Below, one piece after another: positions 15,276 through 20,211 of a stretch of 64,000 nt of DNA. Position 1 is the first letter of the stretch. Each line of letters starts with the position of its first letter. Origin of the DNA: Escherichia coli (GTDB lineage: Bacteria > Pseudomonadota > Gammaproteobacteria > Enterobacterales > Enterobacteriaceae); assembly GCF_041886205.1 (NCBI RefSeq), contig NZ_CP169029.1, one strand, 5' to 3'. The position numbers and the translations under genes were made by a program. The notes beneath the pieces were generated by a model. That model had not been told where the DNA came from and searched no databases. It saw only the letters and a program-made list of their open reading frames with translations.

Positions 15276-17438
15276 ATGGCCTTTATGCTAAGTCCTTTGC
15301 TCAAACGCTATACCTGGAACAGCGCCTGGCTGTATTACGCGCGTATTTTTATTGCGCTTTGTGGAACCACAGCGTTTCCGTGGTGGCTGGGTGATGTAAA
15401 ACTGACGATTCCGCTAACGCTGGGGATGGTGGCAGCGGCGCTGACCGATCTCGATGACCGACTGGCGGGACGTTTGCGTAACCTCATCATTACGCTGTTC
15501 TGCTTTTTTATCGCCTCGGCCTCAGTAGAATTGCTGTTTCCCTGGCCCTGGCTATTTGCGATTGGCTTAACGCTCTCTACCAGCGGCTTCATTTTGCTCG
15601 GCGGTCTGGGTCAACGCTATGCAACAATTGCCTTCGGTGCATTGCTGATCGCCATTTACACTATGTTGGGAACATCACTTTATGAGCACTGGTATCAGCA
15701 GCCGATGTATCTGCTGGCCGGTGCCGTCTGGTACAACGTCCTGACACTTATTGGTCATCTGCTGTTCCCGGTCCGCCCGCTGCAGGACAACCTGGCGCGT
15801 TGCTATGAACAACTGGCGCGTTATCTTGAGCTCAAGTCGCGCATGTTTGATCCTGATATTGAAGATGAAAGCCAGGCACCGCTGTACGATTTGGCTCTCG
15901 CCAACGGACAGCTGATGGCGACATTGAATCAGACGAAACTCTCGCTGCTGACCCGCTTACGTGGCGATCGTGGTCAACGGGGAACGCGTCGCACGCTGCA
16001 TTATTACTTTGTCGCGCAGGATATTCACGAGCGTGCCAGCTCTTCTCATATTCAGTATCAAACATTGCGTGAACATTTTCGCCACAGCGACGTGCTGTTC
16101 CGTTTTCAGCGGCTGATGTCGATGCAGGGCCAGGCGTGCCAGCAACTGTCACGCTGTATTTTGCTGCGTCAGCCTTATCAACATGATCCGCATTTTGAGC
16201 GCGCTTTTACGCATATTGATGCTGCCCTGGAGCGGATGCGCGATAACGGCGCGCCTGCCGATTTACTCAAAACACTAGGATTTTTGCTGAACAATTTACG
16301 CGCCATTGATGCCCAACTGGCAACAATTGAATCAGAACAGGCCCAGGCACTACCCCATAATAATGACGAAAATGAGCTCGCTGATGACAGCCCGCACGGA
16401 TTGAGTGATATCTGGCTGCGTCTTAGCCGTCACTTCACGCCGGAGTCCGCCCTCTTCCGTCATGCGGTTAGAATGTCGCTGGTGTTGTGTTTCGGCTACG
16501 CCATCATTCAGATAACCGGAATGCATCACGGGTATTGGATCTTGCTGACAAGTTTGTTTGTCTGCCAGCCAAACTATAACGCCACGCGCCACCGCCTGAA
16601 GTTAAGGATTATTGGTACGCTGGTAGGTATCGCCATTGGCATTCCTGTGCTGTGGTTTGTACCGTCACTGGAAGGGCAGCTGGTGCTACTGGTTATTACC
16701 GGCGTGCTCTTTTTTGCCTTCCGTAACGTGCAATATGCCCATGCAACGATGTTCATCACACTTTTGGTGCTACTGTGTTTTAACTTGCTGGGTGAAGGTT
16801 TTGAAGTAGCGTTACCTCGCGTAATCGATACGCTGATTGGTTGTGCCATTGCGTGGGCGGCAGTGAGCTACATCTGGCCTGACTGGCGGTTTCGCAATCT
16901 GCCGCGCATGCTCGAACGCGCCACCGAGGCCAACTGTCGGTATCTCGATGCCATACTGGAGCAATACCATCAGGGGCGTGATAACCGTCTGGCGTATCGT
17001 ATTGCCCGCCGCGATGCACACAACCGTGATGCTGAGCTGGCGTCGGTGGTATCAAACATGTCCAGCGAACCGAACGTTACCCCGCAAATTCGAGAGGCCG
17101 CGTTTCGGTTACTGTGCCTTAACCATACGTTTACCAGCTATATCTCAGCCCTCGGTGCTCACCGGGAGCAGTTAACTAATCCTGAAATTCTGGCGTTTCT
17201 TGATGACGCAGTTTGCTATGTTGATGACGCGTTACATCATCAACCTGCTGATGAAAAACGCGTCAATCAGGCATTAGCTGGCCTGAAACAGCGGATGCAG
17301 CAACTTGAACCACGGGCAGACAGCAAAGAACCTCTGGTCGTACAACAAGTTGGGTTATTGATTGCATTACTGCCTGAGATTGGTCGTCTGCAACGCCAGA
17401 TTACTCAAGTTCCGCAGGAAACTCCTGTTTCGGCGTAA
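15276..17438 (+). CDS. yccS: Inner membrane protein YccS (FUSC-like, about 717-720 aa); alternative start at 15285
   Basis: Track ORF MAFMLSPLLKRYTWNSAWLYYARIF...; I recall the reference product starting MLSPLL (ATG 15285). Begins 10 nt after the yccF stop, so likely co-transcribed. Confidence 0.88.
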   Translation: MAFMLSPLLKRYTWNSAWLYYARIFIALCGTTAFPWWLGDVKLTIPLTLGMVAAALTDLDDRLAGRLRNLIITLFCFFIASASVELLFPWPWLFAIGLTLSTSGFILLGGLGQRYATIAFGALLIAIYTMLGTSLYEHWYQQPMYLLAGAVWYNVLTLIGHLLFPVRPLQDNLARCYEQLARYLELKSRMFDPDIEDESQAPLYDLALANGQLMATLNQTKLSLLTRLRGDRGQRGTRRTLHYYFVAQDIHERASSSHIQYQTLREHFRHSDVLFRFQRLMSMQGQACQQLSRCILLRQPYQHDPHFERAFTHIDAALERMRDNGAPADLLKTLGFLLNNLRAIDAQLATIESEQAQALPHNNDENELADDSPHGLSDIWLRLSRHFTPESALFRHAVRMSLVLCFGYAIIQITGMHHGYWILLTSLFVCQPNYNATRHRLKLRIIGTLVGIAIGIPVLWFVPSLEGQLVLLVITGVLFFAFRNVQYAHATMFITLLVLLCFNLLGEGFEVALPRVIDTLIGCAIAWAAVSYIWPDWRFRNLPRMLERATEANCRYLDAILEQYHQGRDNRLAYRIARRDAHNRDAELASVVSNMSSEPNVTPQIREAAFRLLCLNHTFTSYISALGAHREQLTNPEILAFLDDAVCYVDDALHHQPADEKRVNQALAGLKQRMQQLEPRADSKEPLVVQQVGLLIALLPEIGRLQRQITQVPQETPVSA

Positions 17439-18030
17439 GAGAGTCAGCCCATTCTGCTAGCTCCTGGCGGCGTGCCACCGGGAGCGCAGCTTCATGAATC
17501 CCGATAATGGCACCTTCAAGCATAAACAGAATCTTTTCTGTCACCAGACTGTTTTGCTGCCGCAGTCGCAACCAACACATTTTTGCCCCAAGTATACGTA
17601 ACGCCCGTACATCCTTAATCCCCACCTCCCCGAGAATCGCTTCCAGATGAAAAGACATATTGGGCAAATCTTTCAGTCTTTCCCGGGTATTGCGCGTGCT
17701 TTTCTCTTTCAGCGCTGCATCGAGAGAATATTTCGACAGACGCACCAGCTTCAGTTGATTTCGCCATAGACTTTCATCAACCCGATAGTAATTGAGGGTA
17801 ACGGATCGGCCACACTTTTTATATGTCAGCCAGACAGGCGGATGTTTTACACAGTACTGTGCACTTTGCTCACAAGCCCGAAGATACAACTCACCATCAG
17901 AAACCATCGCAAACACCGTGTCGTCAACGGTCAGGCTGTAACTACCAAACAATGATCGGTATTCAATTGTGCCCAACGTTGCCAGGTATTCTTGTGATTT
18001 ATAGATCCGCTTATAGGAGAGGTTTTTCAT
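17401..18030 (-). CDS. sxy: Competence regulator Sxy/TfoX (209 aa)
   Basis: Track ORF MKNLSYKRIYKSQEYLATLGTIEYRSLFGSYSLTVDD... matches Sxy; 3' end overlaps the yccS 3' end by 38 nt. Confidence 0.92.
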   Translation of the reverse strand: MKNLSYKRIYKSQEYLATLGTIEYRSLFGSYSLTVDDTVFAMVSDGELYLRACEQSAQYCVKHPPVWLTYKKCGRSVTLNYYRVDESLWRNQLKLVRLSKYSLDAALKEKSTRNTRERLKDLPNMSFHLEAILGEVGIKDVRALRILGAKMCWLRLRQQNSLVTEKILFMLEGAIIGIHEAALPVARRQELAEWADSLTPKQEFPAELE

Positions 18031-18206
18031 AAAATTCCTTTTAAAATCATAATATAAAAGAATGATTCACATTAACGGATCCGTTAAATACGAAAATAGG
18101 CAACTTCTTCTTTAGGGGCAAGATTAATTTATGTTTTCCCGTCACCAACGACAAAATTTGCGAGGCTCTTTCCGAAAATAGGGTTGATCTTTGTCGTCAC
18201 TGGATG

Positions 18207-18226
18207 TACTGTACATCCATACAGTA
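18207..18226 (+). promoter_or_regulatory. LexA operator (SOS box) of sulA: TACTGTACATCCATACAGTA
   Basis: CTGT-N8-ACAG palindrome immediately upstream of sulA; matches the well-known sulA SOS box. Confidence 0.9.
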
Positions 18227-18248
18227 ACTCACAGGGGCTGGATTGATT

Positions 18249-18758
18249 ATGTACACTTCAGGCTATGCACATCGTTCTTCGTCGTTCTCATCCGCAGCAA
18301 GTAAAATTGCGCGTGTCTCTACGGAAAACACTACAGCCGGGCTTATCAGTGAAGTTGTCTATCGCGAAGATCAGCCCATGATGACGCAACTTCTACTGTT
18401 GCCATTGTTACAGCAACTCGGTCAGCAATCGCGCTGGCAACTCTGGTTAACACCGCAACAAAAACTGAGTCGGGAATGGGTTCAGGCATCTGGGCTACCC
18501 TTAACGAAAGTAATGCAGATTAGCCAGCTCTCCCCTTGCCACACCGTGGAGTCAATGGTTCGCGCTTTACGCACGGGCAATTACAGTGTGGTGATCGGTT
18601 GGTTGGCAGATGATTTGACTGAAGAAGAGCATGCTGAACTTGTTGATGCGGCAAATGAAGGTAACGCTATGGGGTTTATTATGCGTCCGGTAAGCGCATC
18701 CTCTCACGCCACGAGACAACTTTCCGGGCTAAAAATTCACTCTAATTTGTATCATTAA
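18249..18758 (+). CDS. sulA: SOS cell-division inhibitor SulA (169 aa)
   Basis: Track ORF 18243..18758; the known product starts at [23 protein letters not shown] (ATG at 18249). Confidence 0.93.
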
Positions 18759-20182: not shown

Positions 20183-20211
20183 AAAAACCCCGCAGCTGCG
20201 GGGTTTTTTTT
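20183..20211. terminator. Bidirectional intrinsic terminator between convergent ompA and matP
   Basis: A-tract, stem CCCCGCAG / CTGCGGGG, then T8. Confidence 0.85.

Follow-up and report, generated by a model that had tools for sequence, protein, structure and literature searches.

A family-wide inverted repeat on the transcription start of sxy in Escherichia coli: a probable, apparently undescribed regulatory site, most likely a protein operator

Escherichia coli carries a complete Sxy/CRP-S competence regulon, and the natural condition that induces sxy (tfoX) is a standing question. In the work examined, the controls described for the gene are autoactivation through a CRP-S site and, as reported in citing work, degradation of the Sxy protein by Lon. 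Here we consider a 64,000-nucleotide (nt) stretch of E. coli DNA (contig NZ_CP169029.1, referred to as the window), in which a perfect 16-bp palindrome, TTAACGGATCCGTTAA, lies upstream of sxy. The palindrome sits on the sxy transcription start, and its 14-bp core, TAACGGATCCGTTA, is kept across enterobacterial genera; it is probably an apparently undescribed regulatory site, most likely a protein operator.

Several described systems share parts of this arrangement. Like lac O1 and the LexA box of sulA, the sxy palindrome is a short dyad on a core promoter and its start, is conserved in orthologous promoters and has half-site centres one helical turn apart; unlike them, it has no known cognate protein, its left half is much better conserved than its right, and its promoter is active in M9-glucose. 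The CRP-S site (PMC6728893) belongs to the same promoter and shows the same 5-6-5 layout (TTAAC-N6-GTTAA in the palindrome compared to TGCGA-N6-TCGCA-like in CRP-S) and a fixed register, but differs in sequence and in place, being centred at −81.5. The Haemophilus influenzae sxy leader (PMC2248739) belongs to the orthologous gene, with an untranslated region (UTR) of 51 nt compared to 55 nt in E. coli and a similar predicted pairing between the 5′ end and the early codons. There is, however, no detectable sequence or Rfam similarity between the two leaders and no enterobacterial covariation or consensus structure, and the E. coli element straddles the start site and lies partly outside the RNA. 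As in CsrA sites, sxy has an invariant GGA near the 5′ end, in a loop that could be closed by AC...GU, and a second GGA in the Shine-Dalgarno (SD) sequence ∼44 nt away. Unlike CsrA sites, Salmonella tfoX is not found by crosslinking-immunoprecipitation sequencing (CLIP-seq), the match to the sequence selected in vitro is poor outside GGAU, and conservation includes bases that CsrA would not need. Operators sensitive to Dam methylation also occur downstream of transcription starts, as in the agn43/OxyR type; in sxy, too, a GATC occupies the middle of a putative protein-binding site shortly downstream of +1, but it is a single GATC rather than a cluster, no protein is known to bind there, and nothing points to phase variation.

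The palindrome equals its own reverse complement, as the first-pass annotation of this DNA had reported, and it cannot be extended, since the next outward pair is 18071 A and 18088 A. Its place upstream of sxy also stands, with the distance to the ATG (18030-18028, minus strand) corrected from 40-55 nt to a measured 42-57 nt. A GATC (Dam site) is central, within GGATCC. Two published 5′-triphosphate data sets locate the sxy start relative to this element. Cappable-seq of MG1655 in M9-glucose gives a single strong plus-strand start in the sxy-sulA spacer, at U00096.2:1020306, with an RRS of 58.6 (threshold 1.5) and an enrichment of 5.05, and SMRT-Cappable-seq gives a b0959 start at NC_000913.3:1021082, forward, where sxy itself is 1021138-1021767. 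Calibration of the second set shows that its reverse-strand entries reproduce the known ompA 5′ end (GCCAGGGG...) and place the sulA start 7 nt after the sulA −10, while in three of four forward entries the base that follows is A, as though the forward coordinates were zero-based. With an offset from U00096.2 to U00096.3 that we take to be 777, both data sets give 1021083, which is position 18085 of the window. The uncertainty is ±1 nt, and every option falls inside the left arm of the palindrome, not downstream of the element.

This start agrees with the promoter that we read independently of it from the phylogenetic footprint of aligned sxy upstream regions, TTGCCC-17-TATTTT, for which the predicted start was 18084-18086. 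With the start at 18085, TTAACGGATCCGTTAA spans −2 to +14, the 5′ UTR is 55 nt long, the −10 lies at −13 to −8 and the CRP-S centre at −81.5; the dyad axis falls between +6 and +7 of the transcript. The footprint resolves the sxy-sulA spacer into conserved islands. On the sxy side these are the CRP-S site, an A-rich tract, ATCTTGCC, a 17-nt stretch, AAGTTGCCTATTTTC, the palindrome, TGATTT and the sxy SD sequence; on the sulA side they are the sulA SD and start region, the LexA box and the sulA −35 (TTGATC).

Perfect palindromes of at least 16 bp are expected ∼1.4 times per 64 kb in Markov-1 simulations of the window, and four are present, so TTAACGGATCCGTTAA taken alone is not beyond chance. 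What sets it apart is conservation. The sequence is identical in K-12-like, O157:H7 and other E. coli lineages, while nearby positions vary, and the sxy-sulA spacer of the window is matched by 5,425 of 5,426 complete E. coli genomes. We gathered sxy loci from 30 further enterobacterial genomes by protein similarity and aligned their upstream regions. Across the 31 protein-anchored loci, the 14-mer TAACGGATCCGTTA is perfect in 12, has one mismatch in 11, two in five, three in two and five in one, the last being Pseudescherichia vulneris. The perfect form occurs in eight Escherichia (including E. albertii and E. fergusonii), Salmonella, Yokenella, Leclercia, one Enterobacter and Trabulsiella, which also has the identical 16-mer; in the Enterobacter clade the 16-mer ends in C...G instead of T...A. 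Invariance within E. coli together with conservation of the core across genera indicates that the palindrome is not a chance feature, and the conservation in related strains that the first-pass annotation had left for checking is borne out at both levels.

Conservation is uneven along the element. Mean column conservation is 0.99 in the left arm, 0.87 in the right arm, 0.74 in the discriminator and 0.71 in the next 13 leader positions, which hold no invariant column, and almost all substitutions in the 14-mer fall in the right arm. GATC is at the centre of the site in 28 of the 31 protein-anchored species. Judged from the alignment, every core position is conserved in a dozen genera. To extend the range we scanned metagenome contigs for exact matches to the 14-mer, a sample biased by construction and used here only for presence in Klebsiella and Raoultella. 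Among the 120 matches listed, six are sxy loci and 105 lie in long open reading frames (chance matches). Four of the at least six metagenome sxy loci, from three lineages, encode a Sxy only 51-53% identical to that of E. coli, and by exact cluster look-up these proteins fall in Klebsiella aerogenes, the K. oxytoca group and Raoultella terrigena. Register is conserved along with sequence: the TCGCA half of CRP-S lies 76-78 nt from the 14-mer in 34 of 35 species, and 5-7 nt separate the −10 from the 14-mer in all species (6 in most, 5 in the Enterobacter clade).

We read the palindrome, with TAACGGATCCGTTA as its functional unit, as a cis-regulatory DNA site, an operator at the sxy start for a putative dimeric DNA-binding protein, and hold this reading tentatively, at a chance not far short of even. 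Its basis is shown by our analysis or by published data: the dyad symmetry, the location at the start, the constant spacing from the −10, −35 and CRP-S, and the conservation of both arms in many genera, above that of the neighbouring non-coding sequence. The outermost core pair, T(−1) and A(+13), is invariant, and T(−1) is not transcribed; this pair and the C...G ends of the Enterobacter clade each involve a non-transcribed base, which indicates that the symmetry extends beyond the RNA. TAAC and GTTA are 10 bp apart centre to centre, a spacing that would be expected for a helix-turn-helix dimer. The RNA alternatives have no statistical support. The first-pass annotation had proposed either a transcription-factor operator or a stable leader hairpin; the operator is compatible with these results and strengthened by the start within the left arm and the conserved core, while the stable hairpin is not supported.

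In the mechanism that we propose, a dimeric protein would bind TAACGGATCCGTTA over the sxy start (−1 to +13) and would compete with RNA polymerase or block promoter escape at this CRP-S/Sxy-activated promoter. Such repression may help to hold the competence regulator Sxy low, and the central GATC could render binding sensitive to Dam methylation. More specifically, TAACGGATCCGTTA might be the operator of a dedicated repressor, possibly Dam-sensitive, that silences the enterobacterial competence (CRP-S) regulon, a proposal that we consider possible but somewhat doubtful. If it is true, the repressor of TAACGGATCCGTTA, once found, would disclose the long-sought cue for Sxy induction in E. coli and related bacteria, and control by the repressor would be partly lost where the right arm has decayed, as in Citrobacter. 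A combined role of the palindrome in DNA and in RNA is also possible. In each case, a family-wide dyad locked on the sxy start is a directly testable handle, as a bait for the factor, whether a protein on DNA or CsrA on RNA, and as a target for mutation in a reporter.

Several observations weigh against the operator. No binding protein is known for the palindrome, which fits none of the motifs checked, including CRP/CRP-S and the RcdA box TTGTnnACA. In full-text searches the exact sequence appeared in no searchable paper, although coverage of work on sxy is incomplete and an earlier mention is possible. The left arm is clearly better conserved than the right, and ten Citrobacter species and several other genera have one to five changes in the right arm, which would not be expected of a strictly symmetric operator. 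The sxy promoter is appreciably active in M9-glucose (RRS 58.6, threshold 1.5), so repression in that medium, if there is any, is not tight. There is no second site with up to two mismatches in the 64-kb window, and no second enterobacterial context among the 120 metagenome matches listed, in which the enterobacterial ones are all sxy loci. The intergenic matches outside sxy loci among those listed are not enterobacterial, and two such loci that were inspected have no transcription-factor gene as neighbour.

Candidate binding factors were compared with the palindrome one by one. The first-pass annotation had suggested comparison with described CRP-S sites, and the palindrome is not one: TTAAC-N6-GTTAA shares one of five bases per half-site with the CRP core, and the real CRP-S of this promoter is at 18156-18177. 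The site documented there is TGCGAGGCTCTTTCCG (18159-18174, centre 18166.5), and its centre at −81.5 from the sxy start is in phase with class-I CRP activation, as proposed for CRP-S promoters by Sondberg et al. The TetR-type regulator RcdA (YbjK) selects the sulA/sxy spacer in genomic SELEX (systematic evolution of ligands by exponential enrichment), with a footprint near or in sulA, on the sulA promoter side of the spacer (18180-18260; PMC3535384). The palindrome contains no TTGTnnACA unit and is rejected as an RcdA box. Literature searches for sxy with SELEX or ChIP-exo (chromatin immunoprecipitation with exonuclease) gave only RcdA, with its different motif, and the RegulonDB CRP-Sxy entry. 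The motifs of PurR, DeoR, GntR, RutR, SlyA, NarL (7-2-7), RcsB (the RcsB box) and FNR do not fit; the PrfA box, TTAACA-N2-TGTTAA, has half-site letters in common with the palindrome but a different spacing, and, though it does not fit either, may be a lead.

The main rival to the operator acts on RNA. It proposes a CsrA-type GGA hairpin at the 5′ end of the sxy mRNA, in which the 5′ GGA, the GGA of the SD sequence (AAGGA, ∼44 nt downstream) and often a third GGA at codons 8-9 would form a CsrA platform that lowers sxy expression. We regard this as unlikely but deserving of serious weight. GGA is at +4 to +6 in 35 of 35 species and is carried by the left arm, the best-conserved part of the element, and the CsrA model accounts for the weaker conservation of the right arm. 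ACGGA at +2 to +6 occurs in all species, and the AAGGA of the SD sequence falls within the 10-63 nt downstream that the CsrA sequence criterion allows; placement of the first GGA in a loop hangs on a weak stem of 3-4 bp. The stem letters AC...GU around a 6-nt loop with GGAU resemble the CsrA SELEX consensus, RUACARGGAUGU. The third GGA, at codons 8-9, is present in 29 of 35 species, through a CGG or AGG codon 8 (31 of 35) and the codon that follows, but is absent in Klebsiella aerogenes and Raoultella.

Published data on CsrA point both ways. The Kulkarni 2014 algorithm predicts Salmonella tfoX/yccR to be a CsrA target (PMC6347204), and in a Salmonella csrA mutant grown in mLPM the gene gains 1.18 log2 in ribosome footprints and 0.89 log2 in RNA (Potts et al. 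2019, PMC6347204 S1/S2). The translation efficiency of tfoX is unchanged in that mutant, however, the effect is absent in LB, and the CLIP-seq flag of tfoX is 0 (PMC6347204). In E. coli, b0959 is included in the union of the genes that CsrA binds and those that it affects (PMC5694010 SD4), which is weak evidence since that set holds ∼1,500 genes; the gene name sxy is absent from the E. coli CsrA supplement tables examined. The hairpin itself is worth just −1.6 kcal/mol and shows no covariation, and the CsrA model leaves unexplained the invariance of A(+13), C8, G10 and the non-transcribed T(−1).

A second rival, which we judge quite improbable, holds that the dyad symmetry has no function. The left arm would be conserved as the start site and first transcribed stretch of an unusual promoter that depends on an activator, some unrelated reason would keep the right arm, and the complementarity of the two would be an ancestral accident found by palindrome scanning. 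The ∼1.4 perfect palindromes of at least 16 bp expected per window agree with this, as do the unequal arms (0.99 compared to 0.87), the right-arm changes tolerated in many lineages in which the left arm and the sxy reading frame are intact, and the complete loss of the right arm in P. vulneris. Against it, conservation reaches at least 90% at five of the seven positions of the right arm, in contrast to the 13 leader positions that follow, none of which is invariant. A constrained 7-mer would match the reverse complement of its neighbour exactly with a chance of ∼6e-5, and the perfect 14-mer persists as far as Klebsiella and Raoultella.

The remaining alternatives depend on folding of the leader. 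The full 16-mer folds at −3.2 kcal/mol, no better than shuffled sequences; its transcribed part, AACGGAUCCGUUAA, forms a 4-bp hairpin AACG-GAUC-CGUU of −1.6 kcal/mol, and 54 of 200 shuffles are as good. The 55-nt leader gives z = −0.07. For the first 91 nt, the minimum free energy (MFE) and centroid structures reach −16.2 kcal/mol (z = −1.78, matched by five of 200 shuffles), and in them the 5′ end pairs with codons 7-9 (GCGGAUCU). RNAalifold on 21 leaders returned no consensus structure, pair counts for three helices (the 5′ hairpin, the long-range helix and AAUCAU/AUGAUU) gave covariation no higher than in shuffles, and Rfam had no match to the sxy leader. The stable hairpin in the leader is therefore not supported. 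That leader structure limits sxy expression, which the first-pass annotation had treated as known, has been shown for H. influenzae (PMC2248739), and we found no such demonstration for E. coli in the literature examined.

The third rival is a long-range pairing in the H. influenzae style, between GGAUCCGUU (+4 to +12) and AAGCGGAUC (+75 to +83, codons 7-9), that would close the leader and start codon into a domain limiting translation; we consider it very improbable. The helix is present in both the MFE and centroid folds of the first 91 nt, and there is a precedent in H. influenzae sxy, where positions 14-16 of the 51-nt UTR pair with codons 17-19 and mutations there lead to hypercompetence (PMC2248739). 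Among 35 species, 31 have a rare codon (CGG or AGG) for Arg 8 and none has CGT or CGC, so that GGAT is retained in the early coding region, and C. koseri has one compensatory change from C-G to U-A. On the other side, neither the RNAalifold consensus nor an Rfam family match is found, and covariation of the helix is 0.117, a value reached by 402 of 500 shuffles, compared to 0.125 in shuffles. Breaks in the helix occur in Citrobacter Awk4, NCU1 and braakii, P. vulneris, Klebsiella aerogenes and Raoultella, the last two with codons CGG UUU or CGG UUC, and the TAAC and GTTA flanks are left unexplained.

Least probable of all, by a little, is a 5′-terminal stem-loop AACG-GAUC-CGUU. It would start at +1 with no unpaired 5′ nucleotide and, like the ompA 5′ hairpin, would shield the mRNA, here that of sxy, from RppH and 5′-end-dependent RNase E decay. 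In its favour, the mapped start is the first base able to pair, the register from −10 to palindrome is fixed (5-7 nt in all species) and right-arm C-to-U changes keep G.U pairs in six of 21 aligned sequences. Against it, the stem of only 4 bp is worth −1.6 kcal/mol, a value matched by 54 of 200 shuffles; compensatory changes are absent, nine of 21 sequences cannot form the A2-U11 pair, and strict sequence invariance is unlike what a purely structural hairpin predicts.

Two repeats elsewhere in the sxy mRNA were also noted. The leader has an inverted repeat AATCAT...ATGATT (18044-18066, minus strand) just upstream of the SD sequence, in which C-to-T changes yield G.U pairs; TGATTT is invariant in all species, and there is no compensatory covariation in the repeat. 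In the Enterobacter clade, AACGGATC in the region of sxy codons 8-9 repeats the left arm of the palindrome.

Table 1. Features of the sxy region, in window coordinates; positions with a sign are relative to the sxy transcription start.
Feature	Window position	Strand	Relative position	Basis and remarks
yccS coding sequence	15276..17438	plus		720-aa open reading frame; K-12 RefSeq start = 15285, 717 aa
sxy-yccS convergent overlap of coding sequences	17401..17438			38 nt; same in RefSeq annotation of K-12-like genomes
sxy (tfoX) coding sequence	17401..18030	minus		209 aa, TfoX_N and TfoX_C domains
GC-rich hairpin, then yccFS mRNA 3′ end	17460-17485, then ∼17488	plus		Inside sxy coding sequence
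sxy codons 8-9, CGG ATC	18004..18009	minus		Second GGAT(C); paired with 5′ end in MFE fold
sxy 5′ UTR	18031..18085	minus		55 nt; GGA at +4..+6, inverted repeat AATCAT/ATGATT, SD AAGGA
Perfect 16-bp palindrome, TTAACGGATCCGTTAA	18072..18087	none		Equals its own reverse complement
14-bp core, TAACGGATCCGTTA	18073..18086		−1..+13	Conserved unit; left arm almost invariant, right arm more variable
sxy transcription start	18085	minus	+1	First A of AACGG; = NC_000913.3:1021083, ±1 nt
Candidate −10, TATTTT	18093..18098	minus	−13..−8	Within conserved block AAGTTGCCTATTTTC; footprint and distance to mapped start
Candidate −35, TTGCCC	18116..18121	minus	−36..−31	Phylogenetic footprint
CRP-S site	18156..18177	minus		PMC6728893 and sequence; spacing conserved
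sulA −35, TTGATC	18184-18189			sulA start 18219
LexA box of divergent sulA promoter	18207..18226	plus		Other boundary of sxy-sulA spacer

The sxy promoter (Table 1) has a −35 to −10 spacer whose length is fixed at 17 nt and whose sequence is variable in its upstream part. A consensus promoter scan of the region missed this promoter, too weak a match to consensus, and found just one plus-strand match, which is not conserved. Two other layouts were rejected, a TTGTCG-17-TAAATT promoter that would begin transcription near 18119 and a class-I −61.5 layout that would do so near 18105; in each case the region is not conserved and no capped 5′ end is found there. Directly upstream of the sxy −10, 8 nt at 18099-18106 (AAGTTGCC on the minus strand) are conserved like the −10 itself (20 species). 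This block is not a TG-extended −10 and does not fit the alternative sigma consensus sequences considered; another protein may bind here, or the spacer may be under an unusual requirement. A second, weak capped 5′ end at U00096.2:1020352 (RRS 3.4) corresponds to window 18039, minus strand, ∼8-9 nt before the sxy ATG, and a transcript from there would be nearly leaderless, without an SD sequence.

The gene order in the window is helD, yccF, yccS, sxy, sulA, ompA, matP. The tail-to-tail overlap of sxy and yccS by 38 nt (17401..17438), reported in the first-pass annotation, holds by coordinates and by RefSeq annotation. Its corollary that the two transcripts are antisense at their 3′ ends is supported by published mapping, which has the yccFS mRNA ending ∼50 nt past the yccS stop, inside sxy. 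Specifically, SMRT-Cappable-seq places that end at NC_000913.3:1021680 (∼17488), 50 nt beyond the stop and 3 nt after the GC-rich hairpin, so the antisense RNA overlap is at least ∼88 nt. The hairpin lacks a U-tract, and the terminator or protective hairpin of one gene is encoded in the codons of the other. No intrinsic terminator pattern was found, and no sxy 3′ end was found in the 3′-end tables examined. The length of the overlap is not conserved: it is 38 nt in E. coli and E. fergusonii, 14 in Salmonella, 44 in Enterobacter, 4 in Yokenella, 20 in Leclercia, 16 in P. vulneris, 80 in Trabulsiella and 35 in Pseudenterobacter, and in Superficieibacter sxy and yccS do not overlap and are separated by a 198-nt gap. 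sxy and yccFS were already described as converging operons by Conway et al. (PMC4161252). The overlap is real, already documented and ordinary and, being annotated, described and of varying length among genera, adds little.

The sxy gene seems to be sporadically inactivated in E. coli. In LHM10-1, the closest genome and identical across the spacer, sxy is annotated as a frameshifted pseudogene of 652 nt, where the window has an intact reading frame of 209 aa, and in strain XJ34 both sxy and sulA are frameshifted. Farther upstream, at ∼18964 on the minus strand between ompA and sulA, Cappable-seq records a fairly strong start (U00096.2:1019427, RRS 39) antisense to sulA and directed towards sxy, and a stationary-phase antisense unit over sulA is mentioned in Conway 2014; transcription from this point could read into or interfere with the sxy promoter. 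Between the convergent genes ompA and matP lies a 26-bp perfect palindrome (20183-20208), AAAAACCCCGCAGCTGCGGGGTTTTT, which looks like a bidirectional intrinsic terminator.

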